Source of the DNA: Cyanidioschyzon merolae
Lineage: Eukaryota
NCBI GenBank assembly: GCA_000091205.1
Contig: AP006497.2
Reading direction: 5' to 3' (one strand)
DNA length: 64,000 nucleotides
Both the position numbers and the translations under genes were made by a program. This document shows positions 33,753-62,085 of this stretch, piece by piece. Every line of letters begins with the position of its first letter. Within the stretch, counting starts at the first letter, position 1. The notes below the pieces were generated by a model. The model ran no database searches. It was not told where the DNA came from and saw only the letters and a program-made list of their open reading frames with translations.

Positions 33753-34370
33753 GTGCTCATGCGATACCTGCGATCAAGCGCATTGACTGCGCGACTGATC
33801 AAAGCCGGGTGTTTGCGTGAACCAGCGTGGATGTCGGCGCTCCGGGGTCTGGAGGCTGTACGCGCACAGCCCGTGCTTGATCCGGACGCTCGGGTTCCGA
33901 AGCCTGGAACCCGGACGCGTACGGCGAATGACCACACTTCACGGGTATCGCTGCTGCAACGACTGCGCCGCCGACTTGCGGAACGTCACCCCGAGTGGCT
34001 ACTCCACGTTGTGGTTGACCTCAATGCACCAACGAGAGCAGAGCGCGACGTGATCGAAAAGTTTGTTCGTATGCAGGCGGAGCTCATTCAGAGGGAGCAG
34101 TTGTCCGAAGAGGAAGCTTATGAACGCACGCTGGCCGTGCTACGCAGCGAACTACCGCGGACGTCGCAGCTGGCGGCGCTGGTTGAACAGCAGCAGACCG
34201 CGTCAAAGAGTGTCGGGTTGTCTCAGGTTATGGTGGCCGCACCGTCGCTTTCCGTTGCTAGTCCCGAGCGCCCACTCCAGGATCCAGAGGCCGTTTTTCT
34301 GGCAAGTCTCCAGGATGCACAACGTGATCGCTGGTTATTCGAGCAGTTTAGTAGACGTTTAACGAGTTAG
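33753..34370 (+). CDS. Hypothetical 205-aa protein with a presequence-like, Arg/Ser/Ala-rich N-terminus (MLMRYLRSSALTARLIKAG…)
   Basis: An open 618-bp ORF with a coiled-coil-like, acidic C-terminal half. I recognised no domain. A mitochondrial targeting prediction would be needed to test the presequence idea. Confidence 0.35.
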   Translation: MLMRYLRSSALTARLIKAGCLREPAWMSALRGLEAVRAQPVLDPDARVPKPGTRTRTANDHTSRVSLLQRLRRRLAERHPEWLLHVVVDLNAPTRAERDVIEKFVRMQAELIQREQLSEEEAYERTLAVLRSELPRTSQLAALVEQQQTASKSVGLSQVMVAAPSLSVASPERPLQDPEAVFLASLQDAQRDRWLFEQFSRRLTS

Positions 34371-36239: not shown

Positions 36240-36863
36240 GTGCGCCAACACAGTGTTTCGAATCAGACGTATATGGACTTGAGCAGCCCGCAGGAGACCT
36301 TGCGTCCTCGCTATAACGCGGTAGCGTGGTCGGTGTTGCTGGTGCGGCGTCCAAGAACGCTGTTGGCGACGGCTGGTCAAGCTGCGCTGCGCCCAGCGCT
36401 GATGGTTCGTGGATTCAACGTCAGGGTCGGGATCGTGTTGCATCAGCTACCTGATGCACCGATCCGTGCTAGAAATTACCTATACTGTCTTTCTGAGAAA
36501 CAACCGGACTCTAAAAAGCCGACGGACCGGAGCCGGCGGGACGCTTCGCAACCAGTGCCCAGAGACCAGTCCGTTGAGCAACGCCTCGCACGAGAAGCCA
36601 CTCAGCACGGGCACGGATCAGAGGAGGAAGCGCCTGTCTTTGATGAGACTGCCGCACGGGCTGCTGAGATTCTGGAACTTTTGGAAGGTCTGCGCGCATT
36701 CCGGCAACGAATTATTGATGATGCGCAAGCCATGGCGAAGCAGATCAGAACCCCGAAGGAGCAAGTTGATGCGAGTTTAGCGAAACATCCCGATATCGCT
36801 AAGATTGATGCGAGCATCCGCCGACTGGAAGCGGAGCTGAAGGCGATCAGCGATAACGTGTGA
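36240..36863 (+). CDS. Hypothetical protein (at most 207 aa; the true start is probably at an internal Met) with a helical, coiled-coil C-terminus (…LELLEGLRAFRQRIIDDAQAMAKQI…IRRLEAELKAISDNV)
   Basis: An ORF only, with no family recognised. It is placed between repeat-free flanks. Confidence 0.3.
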   Translation: MRQHSVSNQTYMDLSSPQETLRPRYNAVAWSVLLVRRPRTLLATAGQAALRPALMVRGFNVRVGIVLHQLPDAPIRARNYLYCLSEKQPDSKKPTDRSRRDASQPVPRDQSVEQRLAREATQHGHGSEEEAPVFDETAARAAEILELLEGLRAFRQRIIDDAQAMAKQIRTPKEQVDASLAKHPDIAKIDASIRRLEAELKAISDNV

Positions 36864-37149: not shown

Positions 37150-38430
37150 TCAGCAAAGGAGCTCCGCCATGACGCGCTCTTCATCCGCTGGCGATGCAAC
37201 GATTCGACAGAAACCGATTCCTTCACCAGGTGACGGATTTTCCCATTTGCCTGCAAACGACGTCACCACTTTCACCACATCGTTCTCGGTGCTTTCAAAA
37301 AGAGTCGGGTGATTGGGTCCCCGCAAAAGCACTCTCCGTATGCATTCATCCAGTGGAACCGGGAAAACGAGAACGCCTACGGGGTAGGCATTCGCTTGCG
37401 CTGCAATCGCTATCCAGACCGCTCGTTGTGCGCTATCCACGTTGCACCGGTCGACAATGACGTGGCGAGGAGGATCAGACGTGAGCGCCTCCTGCATCAT
37501 GCGCTCACACTCCTGCCGAGATCCGAGATCATCCTGGCTGACTCGTACCCAGTTTTCACCTCCGTGTTTTAACACGAGTTTCGCGAATGTCGACTTTCCC
37601 GATCCAGGAATGCCACAGAGTAGGACTACGCGGGACCGATGCGCTCTCCCCGAGCTCTGGAGTTGCTCCTCCGAGGACCTGTATTGAAACTCGGAACTGG
37701 CTGCTGTCACCTCGGTCAGCGGCGCAGCCACACCCCAGCGTTGATCAGCTTCGCGGGTGCGCCCGATGTCGCAGTCGTGACCAGCAGTGTCGTCGGTGTT
37801 GCTCGGCGAACACGCAGTCGATGATAGGCAGCTCACGTGCAGCTCTCCACGCTCCTTACTGGCCAGAACCGACTGTTGCGGGCGCAACCGCTCCAGGTCC
37901 GAAGTGCCGTCTGTTCGCGAAAGCAGTGGCGCTCGGACAGCGCTCCGGATCGAAACGAAAAGCCTCTGTAAACGGTGTACCAACTGTACCGTTTGGCGAG
38001 CTGGGTTGTTCCCTGAGGCAGTGCTGGTCCGCATATCGCCAGAAAACAATGTCTGGCGTAGAGGGTGCTCGCTCAGAGCCAGCGTCACTTTGCAGTGTCG
38101 CCGCGCAGCGGGCTCCCTGCTCTTGCAGCAAAGTCGTCGAGCACACGTGTTTGCCGGCGTCGGTCGCTGCTGAACCAGAACCAAAGTTGGACCCACGAAA
38201 AGTCGAGTTCCAAGCTTCCTCTTGAGCATGGTCCTCAGCGACACCGCGATAGCCAGCCAGCTGCACAGTGCATAGTTTTCGGACAGTGCTGCGGCCAGAA
38301 GCTGCCGTTCAGTAGGGTTTACGCTGCGCGAACGGCGCTGCGGGAAGTTTGGGCGTTTTGCGCGCACATCGAATCCCAGGCGCTGGCCGCGCTGCTCCCC
38401 AGACCTGCTACGGTACAACAGGGGATTCAC
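37150..38430 (-). CDS. PNKP-type polynucleotide 5'-kinase domain protein (P-loop kinase only; no HAD phosphatase motif), 426-aa ORF with a low-complexity N-terminal ~250 aa
   Basis: VVLLCGIPGSGKSTFAKLV (P-loop), VSQDDLGSRQEC, HVIVDRCNVDSAQRAVWIAIA and F…NPSPGEGIGFCRIV are collinear with the mammalian PNKP kinase domain (GFPGAGKSTF … NRDTLGSWQRC … VIDNTNPD…RARYI … F.APTLAEGFSAI). No DxDGT phosphatase motif is present upstream. Confidence 0.6.
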   Translation of the reverse strand: MNPLLYRSRSGEQRGQRLGFDVRAKRPNFPQRRSRSVNPTERQLLAAALSENYALCSWLAIAVSLRTMLKRKLGTRLFVGPTLVLVQQRPTPANTCARRLCCKSREPAARRHCKVTLALSEHPLRQTLFSGDMRTSTASGNNPARQTVQLVHRLQRLFVSIRSAVRAPLLSRTDGTSDLERLRPQQSVLASKERGELHVSCLSSTACSPSNTDDTAGHDCDIGRTREADQRWGVAAPLTEVTAASSEFQYRSSEEQLQSSGRAHRSRVVLLCGIPGSGKSTFAKLVLKHGGENWVRVSQDDLGSRQECERMMQEALTSDPPRHVIVDRCNVDSAQRAVWIAIAAQANAYPVGVLVFPVPLDECIRRVLLRGPNHPTLFESTENDVVKVVTSFAGKWENPSPGEGIGFCRIVASPADEERVMAELLC

Positions 38431-39709: not shown

Positions 39710-40573
39710 ATGTTCCTCTTTGCTAGCACGTTTGTGTGTCAGCGAGCCTGGCCGCGAGCGCGCTTTCGGAACGCCCCGTGTCGGCGCGTGACGTTGGACG
39801 CTAGGGGTGACTCAGTGAGTGCAGGTGCCGAACAGCCGACGCGTCGTCCTGAGGCGCCCGCGAAAAGGCGTGGGAGTCGCTTTCTCATCAAGGTCCGAAA
39901 GTCTGTGCGCACCACACGCAAGCACGGTAGCGTCATTCCAGCTGATGTTTGGTTACCACCCGAACTAACAAGTGACGTTTTGCCTTGCGGCGACAGCAAA
40001 CTCTTGGATAATGAGGCGCACTTACCGGCGCTGGTGCTCAACGCGGACTATAGACCCCTTTCGTACCTGCCACTGTCGTTGTGGTCCTGGCAAGAAGCAA
40101 TAAAGGCGTCGCTTTCGGGTCGCGTTCGTGTTGTTGCCGAGTACGATAAAATTATTCGTGCACCGTCGATGAGCATGCGGTTGCCTGCTGTGGTGTGCCT
40201 CAAGCGCTTTCAGCAGAGCACGGTCTCTCGGGCAGCTTTCACACGTTTTAACGTCTTCCTTCGGGACTCGTTCCAGTGCCAGTATTGTGGTACGAGCGGG
40301 CCTATCACAGATCTGACGTTTGATCACGTCGTGCCGCGTTCGCGCGGTGGCAAGACGTGCTGGCGCAATGTCGTCACCTGCTGCACGGCCTGCAATCGAC
40401 GCAAAGGCGGCAAACTGCCCCACGAAATACCAAATATGACGTTGCAACGTCAACCTTATGTACCGCTATACTGTGAATTGCAGGAAGTGGCCCGTAAGTT
40501 TCCCCCGCGATTCTTGCATGAGACCTGGGCAGACTACCTGTTCTGGGATGTGCCCCTGCAACGAGACGAATGA
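39710..40573 (+). CDS. HNH endonuclease (bacterial McrA/COG1403-like HNH nuclease), 287 aa, with a ~100-aa Arg-rich N-terminal extension
   Basis: HNH core FQCQYCGTSGPITDLTFDHVVPRSRGGKTCWRNVVTCCTACNRRKGGK (Cys pairs plus DH…N…N). The N-terminal module LVLNADYRPLSYLPLSLWSWQEAIKASLSGRVRVV matches the conserved VLVLNASYEPL…W(R/Q)A…G lead-in of this bacterial family. The N-terminal stretch MFLFASTFVCQRAWPRARFRNAPCRR looks like an organellar presequence. Confidence 0.8.
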   Translation: MFLFASTFVCQRAWPRARFRNAPCRRVTLDARGDSVSAGAEQPTRRPEAPAKRRGSRFLIKVRKSVRTTRKHGSVIPADVWLPPELTSDVLPCGDSKLLDNEAHLPALVLNADYRPLSYLPLSLWSWQEAIKASLSGRVRVVAEYDKIIRAPSMSMRLPAVVCLKRFQQSTVSRAAFTRFNVFLRDSFQCQYCGTSGPITDLTFDHVVPRSRGGKTCWRNVVTCCTACNRRKGGKLPHEIPNMTLQRQPYVPLYCELQEVARKFPPRFLHETWADYLFWDVPLQRDE

Positions 40574-45429: not shown

Positions 45430-46287
45430 TTGAAACTGCACTCGTATCCTACTTACAAAGGACGTGGCGGCGTGAGAGGAAAAGCAGTGGCACGGACGCG
45501 ATCCCGCGAGATGGATACCACCGCCAGCTACCACGTGTTGCTGGTGTTGCTCTCCGTTGAGACTTTTCTCTTCTTTGCAGTTATTGCACAGACAGCAGTG
45601 CAGGAGCCGCTCGCACACGGGAAAATCGCCCGCTTTTTTGGCCTTGCTTTTCTGTCAGAGTCGGTTGCGGGCCTCGCACTTGCAGTTACGCCACTGCTGC
45701 GCGGAAGCGTGTTCCTGCTGGACCTTTTTGCGCTGATCGCTGTTGTGGCGATATGGGCGGGCGCCGCTGTTGCAATCATTGGTGCGGCACACGTTGTTTT
45801 TCCAGAGGATGCGAGACGGGAAGTTCGGGTAGCTCTGGTCGTGCTGTTTGCGTTTGTGTTCGCGTTCGGAACCGCGCGTCTCTATGTCGCAGTAAGTGCC
45901 GCGACACCGGCTTTGCCCCTCTGGTCCACAGACTCGCTGCGGGTGTCTGTTGCGGTTAGCCAGGGCGCTATGGCCAGCGTGGGTGCTGCTTGTGTCCTGC
46001 GAGCGCTGGCTCGACCGAAAATACGGGGCCGGAACGGGGCTTCAGTTTTGCTCCTGGGAACCTTGGTTTGCCTTGTAGGTTCAGTGATTTGGACATGGCT
46101 GTTAGGCAAATGCGAGTTGTCGCAGACGTTGGACAAGGAAGATGTACGGTGTCCGCTTCCACCGGTGTTCGATCACAACGCTCTTTACTGTCTGTTTCTT
46201 ATTGCAGGCAATATTCTGAGTGCAGAAGGCGTCCTGCGTCTTATGGCTGTCGGGGACGGCGCGTTGAACTATGCAGAGATTCCCTGA
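45430..46287 (+). CDS. Hypothetical polytopic membrane protein (about 7 hydrophobic helices), 285 aa
   Basis: Hydrophobic segments such as LLVLLSVETFLFFAVIAQ, FFGLAFLSESVAGLALAV, VFLLDLFALIAVVAIWAGAAVAIIGAA, LVVLFAFVFAFGTARLYVAV, AMASVGAACVLRAL, VLLLGTLVCLVGSVIWTWLLG and LYCLFLIAGNILSA. No family was recognised. Confidence 0.45.
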   Translation: MKLHSYPTYKGRGGVRGKAVARTRSREMDTTASYHVLLVLLSVETFLFFAVIAQTAVQEPLAHGKIARFFGLAFLSESVAGLALAVTPLLRGSVFLLDLFALIAVVAIWAGAAVAIIGAAHVVFPEDARREVRVALVVLFAFVFAFGTARLYVAVSAATPALPLWSTDSLRVSVAVSQGAMASVGAACVLRALARPKIRGRNGASVLLLGTLVCLVGSVIWTWLLGKCELSQTLDKEDVRCPLPPVFDHNALYCLFLIAGNILSAEGVLRLMAVGDGALNYAEIP

Positions 46288-47805: not shown

Positions 47806-49194
47806 TTGCTCTGCTTCGTGTTACTCGTGGGTACGGAAAACCAGGGCTGTAACAAGAACGCATTTCCCTACGACCTGTCTGTGTTGGGGAAGCTGCTGGG
47901 CGAGGACGCTGCAGCACCCGGTTCAACGCAGGTGAGCGCTCTCGTCTTGACGCCTTGGAGCATGCAACCAGGCACCGAAGATGATCCGCTTCCGTACTCT
48001 GAAGCAGTAGTTGAGCCACTTACTCTAGAGTATGAAGCTCCAGAGCACGACACTATGCTGGGAAACGGAGAAGCGGCGCGAGCGGGCAGTGCGGGAACCC
48101 CAAGCCGCCCAGCGCATCCCGAGGATGCAGTCAGTTTTCGTTTTGATCCCAAAGTTTGGGAGCAGGTGCACCTGAAGGATGAGAGCAACTTGATTTTTTA
48201 CGAGGGCGGCCTCGACGACGAAAACGACGGCACAGCTGGAGGTTTCGACGAGATTCAGGAGCAGTTTCGGGAATCCGAGGAAATACAGGCCTCTGGGGCG
48301 CATACTCAGTCAAACTCGGCGGAGCACAGTTGTATGAGCGCGCCGTTCTACTTCTTATGGGGTATAATGCTACGCATTCTCCAACCTTATTTCGAAATCG
48401 ATAGTAGCGATGTGATGCTCCGCTTGAGCCGCTCATTCGTACCTATTCGACCACTGCTCGCCGGCGAGCATCACCAGATGAATATGGTATTGCGCCTGCA
48501 CAAAATATGGACCAGGATTCGCCAGTTTTCTCAGGCGCGTTCGCCGGAAACCGCTGAAACTAATGCGACTATCGACAGTGATATCAGCGACGACGAGTGG
48601 ACCTACTCGAGGAGAGCGGACTTGTATGGGCCGTTCTGGATCGCGACCACCTTGATCCTGTTACTCTCGCTGAGCGGGACAGTTTCTCACCTGCTTCATC
48701 GTGCCTCGGTGCATGCTGTACAGACAGCAAAGGCGTCTACAGCTGTGAAACCGGTTTGGAAGACCTCTGAGATTATCCGCCTAACCGTTTCAGCAGCGAT
48801 TATCTATGGATACGAGCTTCTGGCCGCCACTGTGCTTTGGGCGCTGCGGCTTGTTTATCGTTCGCAGGGCCAAGTACCGCCCTGGACTACCATGTTGTGC
48901 GTTGTAGGGTATGCTCAGGGCCCGCTGGTACCGGCGTCATTGCTTGCGCTGTTTCCCTATCAGTTCTTTCAGTTTGTTGTTATGGTTGTTGCTTTTGCCC
49001 TTAGCGTGGGTTTTTTGGCGCGCAACCTGCTAATTGAGCCACTGGCCGGCGCCGATACTAGTCTGGATGCTGGTGAAGCCACGATTACGGAACCTATCTG
49101 GTTGTTGAAGCAGCGTGCACTCGTGCCGGCGCTTGTAGCTGGCTTGCTCCAGATCGGCTTTGCGATCTGGTGCGTACTCTTCATCATTCTGTAA
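47806..49194 (+). CDS. Yip1-domain-like multi-pass membrane protein (hydrophilic N-terminal half, five C-terminal hydrophobic helices); the true start is possibly internal
   Basis: FEIDSSDVMLRLSRSFVP … DLYGPFWIATTLILLLSL parallels the Yip1 motifs (…FDHIWQKTLTVLHP … DLAGPMVF…), followed by further TM segments (AAIIYGYELLAATVLWAL, PLVPASLLALFPYQFFQFVVMVVAFAL, ALVPALVAGLLQIGFAIWCVLFI). Confidence 0.45.
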   Translation: MLCFVLLVGTENQGCNKNAFPYDLSVLGKLLGEDAAAPGSTQVSALVLTPWSMQPGTEDDPLPYSEAVVEPLTLEYEAPEHDTMLGNGEAARAGSAGTPSRPAHPEDAVSFRFDPKVWEQVHLKDESNLIFYEGGLDDENDGTAGGFDEIQEQFRESEEIQASGAHTQSNSAEHSCMSAPFYFLWGIMLRILQPYFEIDSSDVMLRLSRSFVPIRPLLAGEHHQMNMVLRLHKIWTRIRQFSQARSPETAETNATIDSDISDDEWTYSRRADLYGPFWIATTLILLLSLSGTVSHLLHRASVHAVQTAKASTAVKPVWKTSEIIRLTVSAAIIYGYELLAATVLWALRLVYRSQGQVPPWTTMLCVVGYAQGPLVPASLLALFPYQFFQFVVMVVAFALSVGFLARNLLIEPLAGADTSLDAGEATITEPIWLLKQRALVPALVAGLLQIGFAIWCVLFIIL

Positions 49195-50294: not shown

Positions 50295-52787
50295 ATGCTC
50301 CAGACGCTACCGCCTGAAGTGGTGCGCCACCTCACCAGCGCTCCCGTGGTAACAAGTCTAGCCAGTGTTACCAAGGAACTGGTTGAAAATGCACTGGATG
50401 CAGAGGCAACCCAAATCAGTGTCTTTCTCTCTGGATATGGCCTGGAGTTCATCGAAGTAAGCGACGATGGCTGCGGAATCGCCAAACAGGACCTTGAGCA
50501 GCTCGCGCAACTCCACACAACCTCAAAGCTTCGAGCTTTCGCGGAACTATCGAGCATATCTACGTACGGGTTTCGCGGCCAGGCTCTAGCATCACTGGCT
50601 ATGACGGGTCGACTGGAGATTTCATCACGACCGCGAGATCGGGACGCCTCGGCGGTACCTGGCGTCGCTTTTCGTGCTAGGTACCAGGCTGGTAGGCGCA
50701 TCTCTGACCTGGAGCCCGAGGCGCGTCCCTATGGTACGACGGTGCGCGTATATGAACTCTTTGCATCCATGCCCGTTCGTAGACGGGAGGCAGAGTCTCA
50801 GAAAAAACGAGAACTTCAAAAGGCAATTCAAATCCTGCAGACGTATGCGTTAGCGGCGCCCACGGTGCGCTTTTCGGTTCAGTGGACGCCGAAAGGTCGC
50901 GAACGTCCAACGCTCTGCCTAGCCACACAGGGCAAATGCACGCTCCGTTCGTGCTTCAGCCTGTTGTACGGTGCGGAACAGCTCACGAAGCTGGTGGACC
51001 TCGCGGTAATTGTAAAGTGGCCCACACCGCTGCCCGGTGCCTGCACAGAACCTGAACTCCACATGCGGGGCCTCCTGAGCCGATGTTACCCAGCAGCAGG
51101 GCGCTCTGCCCCAGATCGACAGATGTTGCTACTGCAGGCAAAGCGGCCGGTGCAGTGGACCAGAATGCGCCGAATGTTGGACTCGGAGTTTCGCCAACGA
51201 ACGTGCACTTCGCTCTACCCTGTTTACGTGTTGGCCATCGACCTGCCACCAGATACCTTCGACGTCAATGCGAGTCCCGACAAAACCGAGGTCCTCATTC
51301 ACGACGATGCAGCGGTGGTTGCCTCGGTTCGGGAGGCATTGCGTACATCATGGACACAGGTGGCTGACGTCCGCACCAGGGCCCCATTCTCGGTGCAGAC
51401 TGGAAAGTGCGCCGATGCGCGAGCGAAAGCCCCCGACGATCATCTGCGAGCTGCTCAACTAGCGAATCAGCTGGAATGGTCTGTCACCACAGAACAGAAG
51501 CGAGACACTAGTCAGAGGCTTGTCACAGATGCGAGACCCGCATGCGTCAAGGAAAGTGCTACATCGACGCTCGCTGCGTCGGAAACGACGCTGTCGTCGT
51601 CAGGGATGAGCGCGGGAGTTTGCGTCGCCTCGAGAGCTGAAGTAGAGGCTGCGTCCTTCATCGTCGACCATGTGAAGCCGCACACAACCGAACAGCCATT
51701 CCGTGAATCCCTGCAAGCATCCTCGGCGGCGGTTGCGGCGACGACGGGAGCCCATGAACAATGGGAAACAGCTGAGCCACTTGCTCAGCGATGGACGCAT
51801 CACAACGCTGAGGCTGCCTCTAGCGGAACGGAGTCCTCGGGCACGATTCATAGAAGCGCGGATACGATCCTGAGTGGTGTGAGCGGTGTCAACAGCCACG
51901 AGCACGATCGTGTAGTCGCTCGCGCGTCTGGTGCGTCCATGGAGCGCTGGCTCGCAGTCCACGTCGTAATCGATCCTTTCCAGTGGACGTCATCTGCGAA
52001 TATCTCTCGCAGCTCAGGTTGCGCCCGCGATGCCGACTTGCCGCATGTGGAGCCTATCATTCGTGCCCGTGTTGGTGAGCGTTTGCAATTGGCGTGCCTC
52101 TTGGAAGCCAGTACTCCGAATACGACGGAGGATTGCGTCACAGAATCAAGCACTGAGGCAGACCGGGAACTAGAACAGCGATTTCACAAGCATTGGTTCG
52201 AAGAGATGCGTATCATCGGTCAGTTCAACTGCGGTTTCATCCTCGCAACCTATGGTTCCGACCTTTTCATCATCGATCAGCACGCGGCTGACGAAAAGTA
52301 CATCTATGAGTCATTGGCGAGGGCATTGCGTCCGCGTACACAGAGCATGCTCCAGCCACTTTCGATACCCGCTTCGGCCTCGGAAGAGCTCACGCTCTGG
52401 GAACAGCGCGAAAACCTGGCAGCGCTTGGGTTCGAGCTCGAGTTTCGGTGGAGTGCGCCTCCCACGGAGCGTGTCTGGATGTTGGGAGCTCCCACGGTAT
52501 GTCAGACGGTGCTGGAAGCAACCGACTTGCTAGAGATTGCGCATCAAGCACCGCTCACTGGTCGGGTTGCCGACCTGCTGCGTGCCAGTCGAGTGAAGTT
52601 GCTGCTTGCGACTCGCGCTTGTCGTCGAGCAGTGATGATCGGGATGCCGCTGGATCGTACCCACATGCAGAGTATTGTTGCTCGTTTGGCGACGCTGGAG
52701 CAGCCGTGGAACTGCCCACACGGACGACCGACAATGCGTCATTTAGTACGGGTCTCCGAAATCGGGTTCCGCAGGGCGGTCACCTGA
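50295..52787 (+). CDS. PMS2: DNA mismatch repair MutL homolog of the PMS2 (yeast Pms1) type, with the C-terminal endonuclease motif, 830 aa
   Basis: N-terminal GHKL ATPase motifs ELVENALDAEATQISV, DDGCGI and GFRGQALASL. The C-terminus GQFNCGFILATYGSDLFIIDQHAADEKYIYESL matches PMS2 [33 protein letters not shown], the DQHA(x)2E(x)4E metal-binding endonuclease site. Confidence 0.85.
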   Translation: MLQTLPPEVVRHLTSAPVVTSLASVTKELVENALDAEATQISVFLSGYGLEFIEVSDDGCGIAKQDLEQLAQLHTTSKLRAFAELSSISTYGFRGQALASLAMTGRLEISSRPRDRDASAVPGVAFRARYQAGRRISDLEPEARPYGTTVRVYELFASMPVRRREAESQKKRELQKAIQILQTYALAAPTVRFSVQWTPKGRERPTLCLATQGKCTLRSCFSLLYGAEQLTKLVDLAVIVKWPTPLPGACTEPELHMRGLLSRCYPAAGRSAPDRQMLLLQAKRPVQWTRMRRMLDSEFRQRTCTSLYPVYVLAIDLPPDTFDVNASPDKTEVLIHDDAAVVASVREALRTSWTQVADVRTRAPFSVQTGKCADARAKAPDDHLRAAQLANQLEWSVTTEQKRDTSQRLVTDARPACVKESATSTLAASETTLSSSGMSAGVCVASRAEVEAASFIVDHVKPHTTEQPFRESLQASSAAVAATTGAHEQWETAEPLAQRWTHHNAEAASSGTESSGTIHRSADTILSGVSGVNSHEHDRVVARASGASMERWLAVHVVIDPFQWTSSANISRSSGCARDADLPHVEPIIRARVGERLQLACLLEASTPNTTEDCVTESSTEADRELEQRFHKHWFEEMRIIGQFNCGFILATYGSDLFIIDQHAADEKYIYESLARALRPRTQSMLQPLSIPASASEELTLWEQRENLAALGFELEFRWSAPPTERVWMLGAPTVCQTVLEATDLLEIAHQAPLTGRVADLLRASRVKLLLATRACRRAVMIGMPLDRTHMQSIVARLATLEQPWNCPHGRPTMRHLVRVSEIGFRRAVT

Positions 52788-54192
52788 TACCTGGGCAATG
52801 CAGATAGATCGTTTGCAGACGATGTATACGGTATGCATGAAGTAACCCGACTTTAGATGCACTCCAGACGAGTGCTGGTTGTATTGGGTCTGCGTGCGAA
52901 TGCAGTGCGGGTTACGAAGGTAGAATCCTTTATGTTTTGTCGTGAAGATTTTCGCCGGCTCGTCTCGCGATGCGTAAAGTTTATGTCAAGAGAAGGGGAC
53001 GAGCCTCATCGAAATGAGGCGCGAACTACTTCTACTTCTACTGATGCTGCTGCTGCTGGTGGTGGCGGTGGCGGCGGTGGCGGTGCTAGGTGCATTGCAT
53101 TCCGGGCCAGATATCGCTATTTAGAACCCGAGTTTCCGTCCTGGAAACTATGCGACAAGATCTCTGAAGACCATGATGAGTGCTCTGTGCATTGACGCAA
53201 GCCAGAGTACGTTCCACGGATGTCAAGGAGGATTGTTCGACCTCAAAACAAACCGTGCTCTGCGCTTTGAACGGAGCACGCTGCAGTGGGTTGCACGGGT
53301 ACATGAAATCAATGTTGGACCTGAAGCAAAATGTTCTTTCGTGCCTGTAATCCAATTCACCCGGTACGAGCGGAATAAGGCGTCTGGGTCTCAGCCGTCG
53401 TAGAAAGGCAGACAGCAAGCTCGATAACCTCGTCGCAGTGCAGACTATGTATGCGCTTACTTCACAAAATATTTAGCGTCACAGACAAGTCATGCTTTTG
53501 TGCCAAAATCGTAGGAAAAAGTTCGATTGCGTTTCCTAAAGAACCAATTCGAGTATCACGAAACAGGTTTATCCAACGCATCCTCACAATCGTGGCAGAA
53601 TGAAGTGAAACGATTTCAACCAGCCTATTCTGGCGTTCAAATGAGTGGTTGAGTATATCCGGCTGTTACCAAAACTGGTCTTTGCGCGCTCGTTCGGTAA
53701 TGTCTTTCGTATACCTTCGGCAAGCTTCTGCGCTGGGTGTGCAGGTCTCCTGTGTCATTCGAGCTTCGGTTTCAGTAGTGGATGGATATTGATGGCAACG
53801 GTAGTGGTACGATGCCGCAATTTCGAGTTGCTGTCGAGGCATTTCATGCACAGAAGGTAGTTGCGATCAACGTTTTGCTCGCCATGATCATCTTCATTGC
53901 AGACAGCTTCGGTGGGCGCTTTGTACCGCTGACGCATGCCTGTGATAAGGTGCCCCCATATGTCCATCGTGCCTCCGTTCCCGATAGCCGCCCTGGGTCG
54001 CGTCAAGGCCAGCATCATCGCTCAGGAACCGTCCTCGAAGCGTACAGAAGGTGTCAGTGGATACCCGCTCCCGTTTCCGCGCCCGTTGCCGTGCCCTACA
54101 ACCATGTGCTTCTTCTGGGGGATCCACTCCTCGAGTACGCTCTCCACTGCACACGAAAGCGCATGATGTGCTTTGCAGTTGTGGATTTGCAG

Positions 54193-54966
54193 AAAGCGAA
54201 TTTTTCCATGATGAAACAAGTACCGGAAGGAATGCGCAGTTTGCATATACTGTCGAGACATACCGATCGATCTACGCTCCGCTTGTGCAGAGTGATGACC
54301 CAAGCTCCTCTGCAGGATATCGCTGGGTCCACAGCACGCCGTGCTCAAGATGCTTTTCGTTGCAAGCACTGGAGACAGGAGTCTCTGGAGGCACGTCCCG
54401 TGAGCGGTTTCGTTCGGCTGTGGACTGCCGTTTCTTCCACAGCGACAAAGGGATGAGGTTTTGTGTCTCGAACCGGATCGATTGCTTGCTGACGTTCCAG
54501 GTCCAGGGAGTATGCGGCGCGCGCTCCTGAACACGTCCTCAAGCCACGTCGTCGAGTTTTGGTCTCTCGTCTATCCAGCGGCGTGCACGACCGCGCCCTC
54601 GACTTGCCCTGAACTCGAAAGATCCACAGCATGAAACATGTGTGATTTGCGCACAGTACACGTCATGACATGGGAAGCGTGGCGGCGTGTCCGTATGAAC
54701 TGCATCACGATAGCGGTTGGTTAGGATTCCTTGCTCCAGCGTGTCGAGAATCAGCGTGCCTGCTGTCGCATACCGAGAATCCGGCGGCAAAGAGACGATG
54801 GAGCCAGTCCGAAAAGGCATCGAAGCACCCTAAATTTACGTATGAACCCGAAAGCCCATCTTGCAGCACTGAGCGTGTCGAGTCTATATACCTACAACAT
54901 TGGACGGGAGCAAAACAATCGAAACGCAGAAACAGTGAGGAGTAGAGCGCTCCACCGTCTTCTGAC
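54193..54966 (-). repeat. Interspersed repeat family X, subfamily C, copy 2
   Basis: It is about 98% identical to 46865-47639. Confidence 0.75.
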
Positions 54967-55252
54967 GCAGGCGTGTCGCGCAGCCACCGTCGCAGGCGCT
55001 TCGAGTGCAGCAACAACTTGTTGTCTCTGAGCCGAGTTATCGGGCAGTTTCCACAAGCGCTGCTTTCTTCGTAGTGACTCTTTGCAGTCTGTCATCAGAT
55101 ACCTGGTTGACTCCGCAACGAGTAAGCCTACGACACAGCAGTAGTCGACTAAAGTGCACGAGCGCTCTGGTCCAGTGAGACGGTTCGTGAACCAGCCGAA
55201 GGTTGACGTCAGATAAACGCAGATTCCAGAAACGAGAGCCCCACAGGTCGTT

Positions 55253-57406
55253 GTGCTCAGCTCTGTGCTCGACATAGCAGCTGCAGTTTTTGCAATGTTT
55301 GATACGGAAAACGGCATCGTCTATACCATTGAAGAAGCCGATCCTGAACAGCTTTCGTCAACGATAGAACAGGAGAGCGATGCCTCATCAGCTAGTGAAC
55401 TCTCCTTCGCTGCAGAGTTTTTCGACTGGACAGGTCCGGAGGCGCTAGTAGAGAACGCTGCCTCTCGTCGAAGATCGGAGTCTGAACAAGCACGCGTTGA
55501 CCGGGACCCACGCCACGAAACTCCTGAACACAGAGCTAATCACCACGTCACCGATTCTGGTGAAGGCACCAAGCCTGACAGCAACGGCACCGATGCGCAT
55601 ACGGCGCTCGCTACTCATGATCGTCTGAAACCGCTTGAGAAACGCGTTCATGCTGCTAGCGCTACAAAGCATTCCAGCCCAGAGGCGAAAGTTGATACCG
55701 TCCGACAAAGCGAGTCTTGGGCGGCGCTTGCGCTCTCGCCTCGCATGCTACGGGTCGTCGAGTCGCTGGGCTGGATGCAACCAACTCCTATTCAGGCCCA
55801 AGCGATACCGGTTGCACTCGCTGGACGAGATGTGCTCGGATCTGCTGTAACGGGCTCCGGGAAGACGGCAGCCTTCCTGATCCCCATTATCGAGCGTCTG
55901 TATCGGGCGCAGCGTGCCGATGGCGTACGCTTCGCCGCTGATGCCTCACAGACTGCAGCTATACGCGTTCTTATCGTCTTACCGACTCGTGAACTCGCAG
56001 TCCAGTGTCATGCGGTGCTTGAGGCAATTTGCGATCGTACGGCGAGGGAAAGTGCACGCCGGATGAAGCAGGGCGTCGCAAAGTTCGTTGGCACGCCCGA
56101 GCAGACGCGCCTTCGCTCCGTGCTCCTAGTCGGTGGACTAGCGCTGAAACCGCAGGAACTCGCGCTGCGCCATGTTCCAGATATCATCATTGGTACCCCG
56201 GGGAGAATCATTGATCACGCTCGAAACGCTCCAAACTTCACTCTCGATGACGTTGAAATCCTGGTACTCGATGAAGCAGATCGATTGCTGCAGATGGGCT
56301 TCATGGATGAACTGCGAGAGGTGGTTCGACTATGCGCGGCGAGTGCGCCCTATCGACAGACGATGCTGTTCAGCGCGACACTGGACGCTGGTGTTGAGGA
56401 ACTGGCTCGTTTCGCGCTCGCGCCGGATCGAGTTGTAACGGTTCGCGTGGATGCTACGTTTGATCTCGTTGGAACGCTTGTCCAAGAGTTCGTGAAACTG
56501 CAAATGCCCGAAGTTCTCGTGGAGCCGGCACAAGATACGCGCGATACCCTGACGCACGCCGAGCAAGTTGTGCAGACTGAGCGCGCCGCGTTATTGCTGG
56601 CGCTCTGTTCCCGCAGCTTCACCCGCCGAGTCATTGTTTTTTTCGCCCGCAAAAGGACTGCACATCTCTTCAAAATTATCTTTGATCTCGTCGGACTACG
56701 TGCCGCGGAGTTGCACGGGAACCTAACCCAGGCGCAGCGCCTTGATGCATTGGAGGCCTTTCGCACCTGCACCAATGCAGATTTTCTGCTCTGCACCGAT
56801 CTCGCAGCGCGGGGCCTCGATATCCACGGGGTAGAAACGGTGTTGAATTATGAGTTGCCGAAAGATATTCGGGAATACGTCCACCGGGTGGGCCGCACTG
56901 CACGCGCGGGTAAGCATGGTCGGGCAGTCTCGATATTCCAACAGACAGACCGGAAGGAGCGTCATCTGCTGCGACGCTTGCGGGAGCAGGCTCGACGATA
57001 TCGGGTAGATGCTCTCCGGGGAGATGCACCTGTACCCGCTCCTGTTCTCCTTGAACGTCGAATACCTGCAACGGTGATCCGGGAGTGGCGTGATCGGCTG
57101 CATTCCCTCCTGGATAGCGTTCGAGAGAAACTGCGACAGGAACGGGAGCATCGGGAGCTCGAACGTGCTGAACGGCTCGAGCGAAAAGCGCATAATCTTC
57201 TCATCCATGAGCAGGAGATATATGCACGACCGCCGCGAACTTGGTTCCAGAGCAAGGCCGAACGAAAACGTGCGCAGATGGTTGATCAGGAACCTGCCTC
57301 GAAGGAGCGTTCTGAACGTTCTAATTCTCACAAACACGATAAGGTGCGGAAGCGCAAGCTGGTAACAGCGACAAATCGAGGTGCGCACAACCGGAGTAGG
57401 ATGTGA
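55253..57406 (+). CDS. DRS1: DEAD-box ATP-dependent RNA helicase of the Drs1/DDX27 type (nucleolar 60S biogenesis helicase), 717 aa, with an acidic N-terminal and a basic C-terminal extension
   Basis: Q-motif/motif I PTPIQAQAIPVALAGRDVLGSAVTGSGKTAAFLIPIIERL (the GSAVTGSGKTAAF variant is typical of Drs1/DDX27), PTRELA, VLDEADRLL, SAT, LLCTDLAARGLDI and HRVGRTARAG. The C-terminal K/R-rich tail is also like Drs1. Confidence 0.85.
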   Translation: MLSSVLDIAAAVFAMFDTENGIVYTIEEADPEQLSSTIEQESDASSASELSFAAEFFDWTGPEALVENAASRRRSESEQARVDRDPRHETPEHRANHHVTDSGEGTKPDSNGTDAHTALATHDRLKPLEKRVHAASATKHSSPEAKVDTVRQSESWAALALSPRMLRVVESLGWMQPTPIQAQAIPVALAGRDVLGSAVTGSGKTAAFLIPIIERLYRAQRADGVRFAADASQTAAIRVLIVLPTRELAVQCHAVLEAICDRTARESARRMKQGVAKFVGTPEQTRLRSVLLVGGLALKPQELALRHVPDIIIGTPGRIIDHARNAPNFTLDDVEILVLDEADRLLQMGFMDELREVVRLCAASAPYRQTMLFSATLDAGVEELARFALAPDRVVTVRVDATFDLVGTLVQEFVKLQMPEVLVEPAQDTRDTLTHAEQVVQTERAALLLALCSRSFTRRVIVFFARKRTAHLFKIIFDLVGLRAAELHGNLTQAQRLDALEAFRTCTNADFLLCTDLAARGLDIHGVETVLNYELPKDIREYVHRVGRTARAGKHGRAVSIFQQTDRKERHLLRRLREQARRYRVDALRGDAPVPAPVLLERRIPATVIREWRDRLHSLLDSVREKLRQEREHRELERAERLERKAHNLLIHEQEIYARPPRTWFQSKAERKRAQMVDQEPASKERSERSNSHKHDKVRKRKLVTATNRGAHNRSRM

Positions 57407-57672
57407 ACGGGTGCGGTGGTGGTATCCACGGCTTTGTACTCAGTCGCATGGTTGTGTCGATTCTGTTTAAGCAGCTTTGGCAAAAGCCAAAACGAGCGTG
57501 TTCATCGTTCAACCACGATTTCTTAGCCCGCAGCGACTGAAAGCAACTGGGCGCGCTTTAGGTTTCCGCGGCAGCGACGGGCGAGTCGCTTCACGACGCT
57601 TCGTTCAGTTGCAAGTCGAGCATCCTGTGGTCTGTGCACCTGGGATAGACTAACGCCGTGGAGGATGCGGAA

Positions 57673-58715
57673 CCACGCTGCAGCTGGTAAAAAGAGGTAC
57701 CTCCAAAGACGCTGATACTCTCCGCTAATCGAGCTACAAGACATGCTCTGCAAAGAAGAGCTAGGAAGGGCTCTTGCAGTATGCTGCAGCTGGTAAAACG
57801 AGGTACCTCCAAAGACGCTGATACTCTCCACTAATCGAGCTACCTAGACATGCTCTGCAAAGAAGAGCTAGGAAGGGCTCTTGCAGTATGCTGCAGCTGG
57901 TAAAACGAGGAACCTCCAAAGACGCTGATACTCTCCGCCAATCGAGCTACCAAGACATGCTCTGCAAAGAAGAGCTAGGAAGGGCTCTTGCAGTATGCTG
58001 CAGCTGGTAAAACGAGATACCTCCAAAGACGCTGATACTCTCCACTAATCGAGCTACCTAGACATGCTCTGCAAAGAAGAGCTAGGAAGGGCTCTTGCAG
58101 TATGCTGCAGCTGGTAAAACGAGGAACCTCCAAAGACGCTGATACTCTCCGCCAATCGAGCTACCAAGACATGCTCTGCAAAGAAGAGCTAGGAAGGGCT
58201 CTTGCAGTATGCTGCAGATGGTAAAACGAGATACCTCCAAAGACGCTGATACTCTCCACTAATCGAGCTACCTAGACATGCTCTGCAAAGAAGAGCTAGG
58301 AAGGGCTCTTGCAGTATGCTGCAGATGGTAAAACGAGATACCTCCAAAGACGCTGATACTCTCCACTAATCGAGCTACCTAGACATGCTCTGCAAAGAAG
58401 AGCTAGGAAGGGCTCTTGCAGTATGCTGCAGATGGTAAAACGAGATACCTCCAAAGACGCTGATACTCTCCACTAATCGAGCTACCTAGACATGCTCTGC
58501 AAAGAAGAGCTAGGAAGGGCTCTTGCAGTATGCTGCAGATGGTAAAACGAGATACCTCCAAAGACGCTGATACTCTCCACTAATCGAGCTACCTAGACAT
58601 GCTCTGCAAAGAAGAGCTAGGAAGGGCTCTTGCAGTATGCTGCAGCTGGTAAAACGAGGTACCTCCAAAGACGCTGATACTCTCCGCTAATCGAGCTACC
58701 TAGACATGCTCTGTA
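57673..58715. repeat. Tandem satellite, 107-bp unit x ~9.7, with at least three unit subtypes arranged non-randomly (higher-order structure)
   Basis: The period is 107 bp (atgctgcagctgg at 57781, 57888, 57995 …). Variant positions co-vary: gaggtacc, gaggaacc or gagatacc; ccactaat or ccgccaat; acctag or accaag; cagctgg or cagatgg. It fills most of the 1.4-kb spacer between DRS1 and the next gene. Confidence 0.9.
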
Positions 58716-58806
58716 GCGATGATCCAGCTGGCGCCCCTACACCTAACTGTATCCCCAGCTGTGGAGCGGAGCACCGCTCGAGCGACACCAACCTGGAACT
58801 CGCCGC

Positions 58807-61800: not shown

Positions 61801-62085
61801 GAGATAGCACGGCGATTTCAGCGCCCGTGGCGGAAGTTTCCTGTACAGTTCCATGCAGCGGCTGCCGGTCGCATTCGGCAATGGTGGACGGGCCGCGACT
61901 CCAGTGACCGGCACGTGAACGCGAGCGTCACTAGCATTCGAGAGCACAGTGATGATCACTGCATCGCAAGTGCTTCAAATGCCACTGAGCAAGGAGTTTG
62001 TACAGAGACGAGTTCGAATGTGAGCGCGGTAGATTCGCTTTCAGAGAACTACCAGGGATCCATGCGTATTCAAGGTCTTCCATGA
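58807..62085 (+). CDS. Acyl-CoA synthetase-like (AMP-binding/adenylate-forming) protein with a variant P-loop and a ~400-aa low-complexity C-terminal extension, 1092 aa
   Basis: Collinear adenylate-forming motifs: IMPTAGMTGPRRV (in place of [ST]SGTTGxPKG), DVYGPSEWAG (YGxTE), WTATGDLFRF (TGD) and DRISKIVLCAEHGANELDTSLVEPIE (DRxKD…GE.V.P..IE). The ORF continues about 1.2 kb past the last motif without a stop, which is unlikely by chance at this GC content. Confidence 0.65.
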   Translation: MHLPAHPVNNFYRILAPGVRTDTSCSSRTLSRRGFALMDADFPEWEAPAVSLFDCLLQGCHENPNGRCVRCENSVGCPVASVSSDGWLAYAQVRAYVDRLIAYLQSEPLKLTPGKRVAVYSVFRWEVSIVLSAASFLQLPVVLIDAHEDVSFARALLNNQCVSLLFLGQEQNCEELQSYAGRCLLLGAAALDLPSQPPTLFSVLQVDTAPEVVTSGQPRRKDSVALIMPTAGMTGPRRVICVTEEQLAQAAHALAPLLQYTSSDVVCFLTYSIFHPFFIVHILLLFRAGGAFGAELQTLDNIRKMRTTVLVGPGAILSTFYELLRKEGEKLRGLARRIFALLVEQPPLNQWDPKAALKSTRTGIARSVMRSIRDLFVPQYRLTVSGISRLAEDTRLCLERLLLEPVLDVYGPSEWAGVCLARTRKREHDEWFCILSSPFNRLGRLSTLMRQGEHTAYGELHLHINGKWTATGDLFRFIMNRGPSDPEAPQWRALAFVDRISKIVLCAEHGANELDTSLVEPIELSPHEKQPPFLSLSLMERASQRSAFVRQCWISFEAPQRLMVLLVPVRDMVWKWLRMRQSANGTALVPSRDALSVEPMRDVCNDALFQEAVVCDLRRVLVNCRAIRDEWFDALSWEIYFEPQLDAGCFDLGFTPRNRLLTPSFELRTKSLRAYYGKELGIPVPRASLERGALLAEQLDEEGRLSESSNSDEFESDIGDEPETATASSLQRWLLTLWSALRADLVDPVLNADEECIEHRSFWGRIFHRQLVTSDSAERATTRSTRETSAGEAASTSIPRTDPDPDGASKGPAPAQEIGWIARFWRSAGDPGLSERPPVHLPRFASLDADLPDGACLPLLHSTRNTGRRQRQKAHDGRLRSRDGGAASGHSRWRLGRLWNTLVHESPDHDCVDAGAATQVDRGAGDGADMVGGLTASGASEAAAQMPRWRRWLHVPRVTASGVCGAPQMNEHMRTIRKGRKRNRYDHHSAESLSISDSEIARRFQRPWRKFPVQFHAAAAGRIRQWWTGRDSSDRHVNASVTSIREHSDDHCIASASNATEQGVCTETSSNVSAVDSLSENYQGSMRIQGLP

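Follow-up and report, generated by a model that had tools for sequence, protein, structure and literature searches.

In IsrB, a protein that lacks an HNH domain, the PLMP domain contacts hairpins of the ωRNA, and most of the ωRNA and TAM contacts are made by RuvC, the bridge helix, and TID; in its structure, the PLMP domain resembles the N-domain of IF3 (PMC9581776). A layout of PLMP plus HNH within approximately 180 amino acids is described for IshB in three reports (PMC10734217, PMC11610941, PMC13284715), and a role of IshB as an RNA-compatible ancestor has been put forward as a possibility (PMC13284715). Two characterized HNH enzymes also serve as points of comparison. EcoKMcrA (5-methylcytosine-specific restriction enzyme A; PDB 6GHC) reads modified cytosine with its N-terminal domain and acts in defence, and Gme HNH of Geobacter metallireducens (PDB 4H9D) is a small stand-alone enzyme whose PDB title describes it as a Mn-dependent nicking endonuclease. 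In plants, At3g47490 has been listed as a plastid HNH endonuclease (PMC13533914). The gene of Cyanidioschyzon merolae analyzed here encodes, in our assessment with somewhat better than even confidence, the precursor form of a small nuclease that acts in an organelle, which would be imported from outside into the plastid and be of alphaproteobacterium-like origin.

Gene Structure and Nuclear Setting

Within the window, which is the whole stretch of 64,000 nucleotides that was analyzed, the gene and its parts were delimited as follows.

39710..40573, + strand: complete intronless CDS with ATG start, 287 amino acids plus stop (ORF listing)
39710..39796, + strand: putative targeting-peptide core, residues 1-29, MFLFASTFVCQRAWPRARFRNAPCRRVTL, Phe/Arg-rich, of the red-algal Phe type (composition, orthologue motif)
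39797..40021, + strand: basic, poorly conserved spacer, residues 30-104, predicted to be disordered (AlphaFold2 pLDDT, alignment)
40022..40219, + strand: N-terminal core domain, residues 105-170, beta-beta-alpha-beta-beta, PLMP-like in prediction, bearing the LVLNADYRPLSY motif
40220..40432, + strand: extended HNH (beta-beta-alpha-metal) nuclease domain, residues 171-241
40433..40570, + strand: C-terminal helical tail, residues 242-287, kept across the family (invariant columns, model helices)

An exact-sequence look-up identified the product as C. merolae 10D BAM81423.1 (XP_005537459.1; UniProt M1VJE5), which is annotated as "hypothetical protein, conserved" and whose gene is carried by a contig of 902,900 bp. 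The HNH gene is surrounded by genes of eukaryotic type (RRP5, Yip1, MutL, and a DEAD-box helicase), and together these observations confirm that the gene resides in the nuclear genome, as had been claimed. The gene order RRP5/AAA_33 (-)/HNH (+)/GST (-) is common to C. merolae and Cyanidium caldarium. The HNH gene has a GC content of 0.568, a GC3 of 0.611, and an RSCU correlation of 0.65, and its neighbors are alike, so that the comparison suggested earlier as a guard against contamination excludes it. Contamination and recent transfer were both rejected because the composition is host-like, the synteny extends to Cyanidium, and orthologues are widely distributed among algae. The literature searched on HNH proteins in conjunction with Cyanidioschyzon, or on plastid-targeted HNH proteins, contained no study of the BAM81423.1 protein, in agreement with the statement that such genes are poorly characterized.

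The HNH Domain and the C-terminal Tail

The HNH domain was recognized by Pfam HNH_5 (PF14279; 2.1e-15, 56.8 bits versus a cut-off of 27.5) and HNH (PF01844; 2.4e-13, 50.5 bits versus a cut-off of 21.4), both over residues 190-241, and these matches are far beyond chance. In an alignment of 60 family sequences the core has more than 60 invariant positions. Among the invariant residues are the putative zinc ligands C190, C193, C225, and C228, the pair D205-H206 with the predicted catalytic His, N220 and N229, which complete the HNH motif, and the lead-in motif LVLNADYRPL (L108 to L117). Every motif named in the original prediction (the lead-in, CxxC, DH, N, and CxxC) was thus located in the reading frame. 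By its sequence, the protein displays the characters of the HNH superfamily, namely a beta-beta-alpha-metal motif, a DH with the predicted catalytic His, the Asn positions, and two CxxC pairs.

The tail retains P249, P252, L257, R262, P266, L269-H270, W273, D275, and W279-D280 as conserved residues, and helices were modeled by AlphaFold2 at 254-261 and 266-273. These helices, which follow directly after the HNH core, align with the same region of small Cas9/IscB proteins, and the profile match to 8w2z/8zq9 reaches profile position 169/188. The best NCBIfam matches were partial ones to IscB and Cas9d (44-47 bits versus cut-offs of 175-375), that to IscB (43.9 bits versus a 175-bit cut-off) being confined to model positions 171-238. 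No Pfam match to RuvC or RRXRR was found in the 287-amino-acid protein. As judged from these profile comparisons, the HNH part is best matched by IscB and Cas9.

The N-terminal Core Domain and a Possible RNA Partner

The domain that carries the lead-in motif (pLDDT 84 in the AlphaFold2 model) is predicted to adopt a fold like that of PLMP in IscB and IsrB. At the sequence level its homology to PLMP is not significant: an hmmsearch of the N-domain profile against the PDB returned nothing, and hhalign of the domain against the DtIsrB seed or a four-sequence PLMP profile built from PDB alignments recovered only "D-x-RPL" (E = 0.1-0.2). Since IsrB has no HNH domain, the element that it shares with the N-domain would most likely be PLMP. 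With a PLMP-like predicted fold followed by an HNH domain best matching IscB/Cas9, the core would therefore have the layout described as IshB, the N-domain being assigned by predicted fold.

This layout, in about 180 amino acids, is what an RNA-partnered nuclease of the true IshB/OMEGA lineage would have, in which the targets are selected by an RNA that is guide-like or structured and possibly encoded in the organelle; the ωRNA hairpin contacts of PLMP in IsrB (PMC9581776) and the proposed ancestral role of IshB (PMC13284715) point in the same direction. Such a partnership is nevertheless improbable, as RuvC, the bridge helix, and TID, to which most ωRNA and TAM contacts in IsrB are due, are missing from the protein, and the Rfam HEARO/ωRNA models had no match in the 64-kb window or in 18 bacterial loci. 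The median intergenic gap next to the bacterial HNH genes is 143 bp on the upstream side and 94 bp on the downstream side, and an ωRNA of about 200-300 nt would not fit into spaces of about 100-150 bp. Neighbor clustering of 80 bacterial loci also revealed no recurrent transposase-like family, and TnpA was absent from five Pfam-annotated bacterial contexts. The contigs of two divergent members, P0272 (627 bp) and P0223 (phage-like), had no TnpA either but were not informative. It would be a long shot that the protein is a eukaryotic descendant of the IshB lineage that was fixed as a core enzyme of the plastid in algae of the red lineage and still has an RNA partner or an RNA:DNA hybrid substrate; if true, an OMEGA-type nuclease would have been recruited to organelle genome maintenance.

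Bacterial and Phage Relatives

Core residues 105-287 are 58-64% identical to single-copy proteins of approximately 186 amino acids in Alphaproteobacteria, which are the nearest bacteria overall (55-64% identity), and the best bacterial matches listed were all alphaproteobacterial with the exception of one MAG labelled Bdellovibrionales. Mean core identity was 58% between red algal and alphaproteobacterial proteins and 60% among the red algal proteins, versus 42-48% to other bacteria and phages. Full-length relatives also occur in large phages (jumbo and T4-like), where some are annotated as "homing endonuclease"; PHROG 16726 matched residues 100-278 with E = 8e-34, and Rhizobium phage proteins are 44% identical to the C. 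merolae core. The divergent bacterial member P0189 is phage-borne.

In Alphaproteobacteria the gene lies in a conserved block of the order GluQ-RS/HhH-GPD glycosylase/Abhydrolase_2/HNH/DsbB, COQ7. A GluQ-RS-like gene is located divergently upstream in 40 of 80 bacterial loci, a gene resembling HhH-GPD DNA glycosylases directly upstream on the same strand in 21 of the 80, and a tRNA gene downstream in 9 of 18 loci. This neighborhood may represent inherited gene order and not shared function. The GluQ-RS-like and tRNA genes would suit a nuclease of RNA processing (tRNA/rRNA maturation or decay) that does not act on DNA. The same holds for the RNA binding of PLMP in IsrB and its resemblance to the IF3 N-domain (PMC9581776), and for the cyanidiophyte AAA_33 P-loop gene head-to-head with the HNH gene, which in C. 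merolae also matches a tRNA-ligase kinase domain. However, gene order alone is weak evidence, the glycosylase-like neighbor points toward DNA, and the characterized close HNH relatives (Gme HNH and the Cas9/IscB HNH domains) cut DNA, which leaves an RNA-only function with a slim chance of being correct.

The protein had been called McrA-like, a description that stands as a COG1403 label but not beyond it: the match to EcoKMcrA covers approximately 30 HNH residues (E = 0.27) and the N-domain is PLMP-like in prediction instead of a base-recognition domain, so that membership in McrA was ruled out. Known defence systems were likewise rejected, PADLOC giving matches at the level of the HNH motif only (≤27 bits). 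That the gene is a selfish or defensive nuclease (McrA-type or free-standing HNH homing), a recent horizontal acquisition, or a bacterial contaminant could be argued from the label "McrA" given by JGI to members of the cluster and from the full-length relatives in large phages. We consider this extremely unlikely in view of the short McrA match and low PADLOC scores, the strong conservation of the core, the host-like composition and Cyanidium synteny on a 0.9 Mb contig, and the occurrence of orthologues across the sampled red-algal classes, a glaucophyte, and ochrophytes. The bacterial locus, too, is a fixed chromosomal block, and a conserved housekeeping setting of the alphaproteobacterial orthologues is not the defence or mobile context of McrA-type genes.

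The N-terminal Leader and Its Likely Destination

Bacterial homologues start at about residue 100 of the C. merolae protein. The preceding leader (residues 1-104) must be translated, because the reading frame is closed by a stop immediately before M1 and offers no further Met until residue 154, which already belongs to the conserved core. The region of residues 30-104 is present in eukaryotic sequences only, where it varies in length and sequence, and is absent from all bacterial homologues in the alignment; the AlphaFold2 pLDDT is below 50 across nearly all of residues 1-95. Residues 1-29 comprise 6 Arg, 4 Phe, and no Asp or Glu (net charge +6), and over all 104 residues of the extension the counts are 20 for Lys/Arg and 10 for Asp/Glu. 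The presequence-like extension described earlier is thus real and specific to eukaryotes, but it is free of acidic residues in positions 1-29 only and not over the approximately 30-100 amino acids that had been stated.

Orthologues were detected in all sampled red-algal classes, a glaucophyte, and many ochrophytes. All named eukaryotic homologues are from plastid-bearing organisms and none is from a non-photosynthetic eukaryote. Cyanobacterial or green-plant relatives were found neither in the homologue searches nor among the 80 best-ranked of at least 600 matches in genomes, and the suggested link to plant HNH-domain proteins was not borne out, as no green-plant orthologue was among the named matches.

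The C. merolae protein begins with MFLFASTFV, and MF[LIV] starts are kept in Cyanidiococcus and two more relatives. Phe is needed for import into glaucophyte, red, and red-derived plastids (PMC2222254). A pattern based on this concept, which was drawn up after inspection of the data (small-F-hydrophobic within the first 30 amino acids), occurred in 21 of 32 red-algal and glaucophyte orthologues, as compared with 3% of control windows and 5.0±2.0 sequences in shuffles. A signal-peptide-like N-terminus was observed in 90 of 193 N-extended homologues and was followed in 73 of these 90 by small-x-small↓F/Y/W/L (the arrow marks the cleavage site), as in Chrysophaeum (RASG↓FAPV), Tribonema (NSEA↓FSTR), and Phaeothamnion (KAEA↓FQPA). 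The sequence features of red-lineage plastid targeting are thus present: red algae and the glaucophyte show a Phe close to the N-terminus, and ochrophytes, which have complex plastids, a signal peptide and then an A-x-A↓F site.

By composition, residues 1-29 would also pass as a mitochondrial presequence: they carry a candidate R-2 site (R26-V27↓T28) and end in RRV↓TL just ahead of the first Asp. Import into mitochondria, either alone or dual with the plastid, of a protein inherited from the alphaproteobacterial ancestor of this organelle would fit this acid-free, positively charged segment and the alphaproteobacterial identity of the closest bacterial relatives. It is unlikely, however, since an amphipathic helix in the leader would be broken by P15 and P23, non-photosynthetic eukaryotes are not represented among the named homologues, the early Phe motif is common to the red-algal and glaucophyte orthologues (PMC2222254), and the ochrophyte signal peptide plus A-x-A↓F is a plastid and not a mitochondrial signature. 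Based on the ochrophyte signals and the early Phe motif, we favour the plastid over the mitochondrion as the destination of the leader.

Phylogenetic affinity was assessed by identity ranking alone. A bootstrapped NJ tree of 175 columns left the deep nodes unresolved (6% bootstrap for red-algal monophyly and 0% for all eukaryotes together), so that the tree does not demonstrate a single eukaryotic acquisition. The expectation of a presequence-like leader held, and the signals of the orthologues point to the plastid and not the mitochondrion. The combination of alphaproteobacterial affinity and plastid-type signals does not lead to a simple scenario in which an endosymbiont gene returns to its own organelle.

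Proposed Role

The preferred reading is that of a plastid-imported nuclease, and the functional statements that follow are all inferred from sequence and predicted structure. The gene would have passed from an alphaproteobacterium-like donor to an early eukaryote with a plastid, and ochrophytes would have gained it along with the red-type plastid. The leader would direct import into the plastid stroma and then be removed, a step proposed because of the Phe-type N-terminus in red algae and the glaucophyte and the signal peptide plus A-x-A↓F in ochrophytes. In the mature protein of approximately 180 amino acids, the PLMP-like beta-sheet domain may bind nucleic acid, and the IscB/Cas9-type HNH domain, with His206 as putative general base and Asp205/Asn229 holding one divalent metal ion, would cut one phosphodiester strand, which would make it a nickase rather than a double-strand cutter. 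What is proposed here on the substrate (DNA, RNA, or a hybrid) and on nicking derives solely from relatives. The probable function is metal-dependent nicking in the maintenance of organelle DNA, and the protein may act as a housekeeping enzyme in repair or on recombination intermediates or RNA:DNA hybrids. It would do so without a transposon or adjacent guide RNA, mirroring its conserved single-copy orthologues in Alphaproteobacteria.

An alphaproteobacterium-like gene hence appears to serve the plastid, its origin differing from its destination. The protein is a candidate for an unstudied nuclease common to red-type plastids, with no green-plant orthologue seen among the named matches. As gene targeting is routine in C. 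merolae, localization and knockout are directly feasible.

Comparison with Known Systems

The alphaproteobacterial proteins annotated as "HNH endonuclease", for example in Vineibacter terrae, Arenibaculum, and Acidomonas, are orthologous over the whole core; they and the PHROG 16726 proteins are products of bacterial chromosomal or phage genes and have no N-terminal leader. Gme HNH shares the CxxC...DH...N...CxxC-N layout, but with 112 amino acids it consists of the HNH motif alone, without the PLMP-like N-domain and the conserved C-terminal tail. The likeness to EcoKMcrA lies in the COG1403 label, and in place of a domain reading modified cytosine the C. merolae protein has an N-domain that is PLMP-like in prediction. 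In contrast to IscB, IsrB, and small Cas9 (Cas9d), it has no RuvC, bridge helix, TID, or ωRNA; the HNH domain of IscB and Cas9 is inserted into a split RuvC domain with a bridge helix.

A close counterpart, compared by description, is IshB, which has a PLMP-type domain followed by an IscB/Cas9-type HNH domain in approximately 180 amino acids, without RuvC or TID. The C. merolae core is of similar size, likewise lacks RuvC and TID, and would share this layout through the predicted fold of its N-domain, so that it looks like a pared-down relative of the forerunners of Cas9; neither IshB nor the C. merolae protein has been characterized biochemically. Unlike IshB, the C. merolae gene is nuclear and eukaryotic and encodes a 104-amino-acid organelle-type leader, its motif reads RPLSY in place of PLMP and has a six-residue insert after it, and its bacterial orthologues occupy a fixed housekeeping block in which no transposon, TnpA, or ωRNA was detected. 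If the fold assignment holds, the new point is a PLMP+HNH core without RuvC/TID in a non-mobile gene. Such proteins would then be more than cargo of insertion sequences: Alphaproteobacteria would have them as the product of a strongly conserved single-copy gene, jumbo and T4-like phages would encode them as well, and in red algae, a glaucophyte, and ochrophytes they would be organelle proteins with genes in the nucleus. This non-mobile setting would be a tractable one for asking what a PLMP domain and a RuvC-less HNH domain do on their own.

Identity and genomic setting of the HNH gene

The ORF listing contained a single ORF at exactly the position of the HNH gene, and its translation confirmed the motifs of the original prediction, a McrA-like HNH endonuclease, with LPALVLNADYRPLSY starting at residue 105 and CQYCG...DH...N...CCTACN spanning residues 190–229. 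Pfam assigned HNH_5 (2.1e-15) and HNH (2.4e-13) to residues 190–241, both well over the curated cut-offs. The protein exactly matches C. merolae 10D BAM81423.1 / XP_005537459.1 / UniProt M1VJE5, which is encoded on a 902,900-bp contig and annotated as "hypothetical protein, conserved".

Features in the window and in the Cyanidium caldarium stretch (L001)
Window 39710–40573 (+): HNH gene, ATG start, 287 amino acids
Window 37150–38430 (-): P-loop AAA_33 gene, head-to-head with the HNH gene, 1.28-kb spacer
Window 47806–49194: Yip1 gene, counterpart missing from the Cyanidium stretch
Window 50295–62085: MutL / DEAD-box helicase / AMP-binding block, 3' of the HNH gene
Window 33753–34370 (+), 36240–36863 (+), 45430–46287 (+): ORFs of 205–285 amino acids without Pfam match
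L001 8598–9467 (-): P-loop AAA_33 gene, head-to-head with the HNH gene, 0.53-kb spacer
L001 14699–21110: MutL / DEAD-box helicase / AMP-binding block, 3' of the HNH gene, with orientation and gene order reversed compared to C. merolae

The original prediction had raised the question of bacterial contamination. Base composition and codon usage of the gene (GC 0.568, GC3 0.611, RSCU correlation 0.65) lie within the range of its neighbors, and the adjoining ORFs are ordinary eukaryotic genes (RRP5, P-loop AAA_33, GST, Yip1, MutL, DEAD-box helicase, and AMP-binding enzyme). The Cyanidium orthologue is 67% identical over the core (residues 105–287), and both algae have the order RRP5, AAA_33 (opposite strand), HNH, and GST (opposite strand). 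Contamination and chimeric assembly are thus excluded by the host-like composition, the eukaryotic neighbors, and the common gene order.

The AAA_33 gene, which in C. merolae has an additional match to the tRNA-ligase kinase domain, and the HNH gene may have a promoter region in common. In Cyanidium, RRP5 and AAA_33 are separated by an unannotated 141-aa gene, and GST is followed by a 411-aa gene lacking Pfam hits; these two and the three Pfam-less ORFs in the window could be chance ORFs or genes specific to their lineage.

Distribution and origin of the family

At the top of the first database search were four eukaryote-like relatives, and after them came thousands of bacterial proteins of ~186 amino acids; all named bacterial matches were alphaproteobacterial, with 59–63% identity over residues ~105–287. 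In a bacterial scan using one genome per species, the best 80 of at least 600 matches had 55–61% identity; 79 were labeled alphaproteobacterial or unclassified-proteobacterial and one, a MAG, Bdellovibrionales. When 1.84 billion representatives were searched exhaustively with phmmer, 308 clusters scored E <= 1e-30. Many have lengths of 250–430 amino acids and a C-terminal conserved core, as would be expected of leader-bearing eukaryotic proteins. By cluster look-up and in two additional searches, homologues were named in red algae (Cyanidiococcus, Cyanidium, Galdieria, Chondrus, Porphyridium, Rhodosorus, and Timspurckia), the glaucophyte Gloeochaete, and ochrophytes (Chrysophaeum, Rhizochromulina, Phaeodactylum, Tribonema, Phaeothamnion, Leptocylindrus, and a truncated MMETSP label that would fit Dinobryon). 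The named matches included no green plants, cyanobacteria, or non-photosynthetic eukaryotes, which does not prove absence from these groups since only part of the matches carry names.

Mean identity over the core was 58% between red algae and alphaproteobacteria and 60% among the red algae themselves. Alphaproteobacteria shared 58% with the glaucophyte and 51% with the ochrophytes, and other bacteria or phage 42–48% with any eukaryote group.

Alphaproteobacterial proteins also scored almost as high as eukaryotic ones against a eukaryote-only profile. Since a bootstrapped neighbor-joining tree left the deep nodes unresolved, the ranking of identities was relied on and no topology is claimed; judged by sequence similarity, the source of the HNH gene appears to resemble the alphaproteobacteria.

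Two homologues have unusual structures, P0005 (216 aa), in which the CxxC...DH...N segment is duplicated in tandem, and P0247 (318 aa), with a ~60-residue insertion within the HNH motif that resembles an unspliced intron; errors of assembly or gene calling may account for both.

Leader and targeting

An in-frame stop directly precedes M1 and the next methionine is residue 154, within the conserved region, so the 104-residue extension must be translated for the conserved N-domain (residues 105–170) to be made. The extension had been described as acid-free over ~30–100 residues; this holds for residues 1–29 (six Arg, four Phe, no Asp/Glu), whereas the entire leader contains 10 Asp/Glu against 20 Lys/Arg. 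AlphaFold2 pLDDT is below 50 over nearly all of residues 1–95. Bacterial proteins begin ~5 residues ahead of the LVLNAD motif, and the eukaryotic proteins are all extended by 60–230 residues, variable in length and sequence.

A signal-peptide-like hydrophobic start, as in ochrophytes and other complex-plastid algae, is present in 90 of 193 N-extended homologues, and in 73 of these 90 the hydrophobic stretch is followed by small-x-small and then F/Y/W/L, with clear cleavage-site examples (slash) in Chrysophaeum (MPRASG/FAPVVP), Tribonema (NSEA/FSTR), and Phaeothamnion (KAEA/FQPA). A small-F-hydrophobic motif, a pattern devised after inspection of the sequences, occurs within the first 30 residues of 21 of 32 red-algal and glaucophyte orthologues, compared to 3% in other windows of those proteins and to 5.0 ± 2.0 after shuffling of the N-termini. 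In C. merolae the N-terminus reads MFLFASTFV. A Phe of this kind is required for import into glaucophyte, red, and red-derived plastids (PMC2222254). Taken alone, the C. merolae leader would also pass for a mitochondrial presequence, and mitochondrial or dual targeting is a less likely rival reading. Plastid targeting is nevertheless the best reading, because of the Phe and signal-peptide signals and the restriction to plastid-bearing lineages. The protein is thus likely organelle-targeted, and the sequence signals make the plastid its probable destination.

Bacterial gene context and phage relatives

In five Pfam-annotated alphaproteobacterial genomes the gene lies in a block of GluQ-RS-like, HhH-GPD glycosylase-like, Abhydrolase_2, HNH, DsbB, and COQ7 genes. 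Intergenic gaps around the bacterial gene have medians of 143 bp on the upstream and 94 bp on the downstream side.

Neighbor genes clustered across 80 bacterial loci
GluQ-RS-like gene: upstream, divergent, 40/80
HhH-GPD gene: directly upstream, same strand, 21/80
DsbB: downstream, 18/80
COQ7: downstream, 12/80

Among 18 bacterial loci Rfam detected no HEARO/ωRNA, which speaks against the rival reading of an RNA-partnered, OMEGA-like mode, and a PADLOC search for defense systems returned motif-level matches only. Together with the conserved block and the small gaps, these results indicate a fixed housekeeping gene. A selfish or defensive nuclease is a further rival reading; for the bacterial gene, a role as insertion-sequence passenger or part of a defense island was rejected on the grounds of the fixed block and the HEARO/ωRNA and PADLOC results. 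The sole Rfam match was a tRNA gene of 82–84 nt, located 0.75–4 kb downstream and in the same orientation in 9 of 18 alphaproteobacterial loci (L005 6981–7062, L021 4900–4981, L014 4278–4359, and six others). The proximity to tRNA and GluQ-RS genes, which speaks for the rival reading of an RNA-processing nuclease, may reflect either function or inherited gene order. In the 64-kb window itself, neither a tRNA gene nor any Rfam match was detected.

The family extends to large phages, with full-length relatives in a T4-like marine phage contig, Rhizobium T4-like phages (44% identity), Atu_ph07, phiKZ-like Pseudomonas jumbo phages, and some cyanomyoviruses (S-TIM61, S-CRM01), and PHROG 16726 was matched with E = 8e-34. 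The marine contig encodes the full-length member P0189 (L088 10001–10555; also L089), 46–49% identical to the C. merolae core, with PhoH, gp59, and gp32 homologues nearby. By tblastn, 33–43 phage records contained full-length matches.

Core architecture and proposed activity

The HNH active site is intact in sequence and accompanied by a four-Cys zinc site, and the protein is almost certainly an HNH nuclease. Among solved sequences, the 112-aa Gme HNH endonuclease (4H9D) is closest, and its PDB title names a Mn-dependent nicking endonuclease. The best NCBIfam matches are the IscB and Cas9d models, both partial, and positions 67–169 of the family profile align to the HNH domain and flanking helices of small Cas9 proteins of ~746 amino acids.

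A model of residues 100–186 alone had a mean pLDDT of 84, with 92–95 across the sheet. The PLMP domain of IsrB/IscB consists of a four-stranded sheet and one helix (PMC9581776). Since IsrB lacks the HNH domain but shares the N-terminal PLMP with IscB, the PLMP is most likely the element able to match the 60-residue beta-beta-alpha-beta-beta unit. The motif strands of DtIsrB (VPVVGVDGRPLMP), TbaIscB (VFVVDKNNNPLMP), and HfmIscB (FVVDKNNRPLAP) line up by eye with that of the HNH family (ALVLNADYRPLSY), and a 30-residue stretch of a divergent member, lacking the six-residue insert, was set beside them. Formal sequence tests of the N-domain against PLMP were not significant, so the assignment is based on the predicted fold and its specificity, which suggest that the N-domain is likely of the PLMP type.

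In the proposed mechanism, the precursor would be carried into the plastid by its leader, which would then be removed. Nucleic acid would be held by the PLMP-like domain and the C-terminal helices, water activated by His206, and one metal ion held by Asp205/Asn229, leading to a single-strand cut. Cleavage of one strand is suggested by the title of the Gme HNH entry and by the literature on IshB, a predicted target-strand nickase (PMC10734217). The cellular role would be organelle DNA maintenance; on the combined analysis, a nickase acting in DNA maintenance is a tentative proposal.

An annotation of the gene as a hypothetical protein with an HNH domain already exists, and the HNH superfamily itself is well known. 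The literature searched contained no description of a pan-red-lineage family, an alphaproteobacteria-like source, or a non-mobile IshB-like layout. A pan-red-lineage gene family with plastid-type leaders, its source resembling alphaproteobacteria, and the IshB-like PLMP+HNH core layout in a non-mobile setting thus appear to be new. IshB is a lineage named in 2021, with ~180 amino acids, PLMP and HNH but no RuvC or TID, and is still uncharacterized (PMC10734217, PMC11610941, PMC13284715). The HNH core has a similar layout of ~180 amino acids, with a PLMP-like part, as judged from its predicted fold, followed by HNH, and likewise lacks RuvC and TID.
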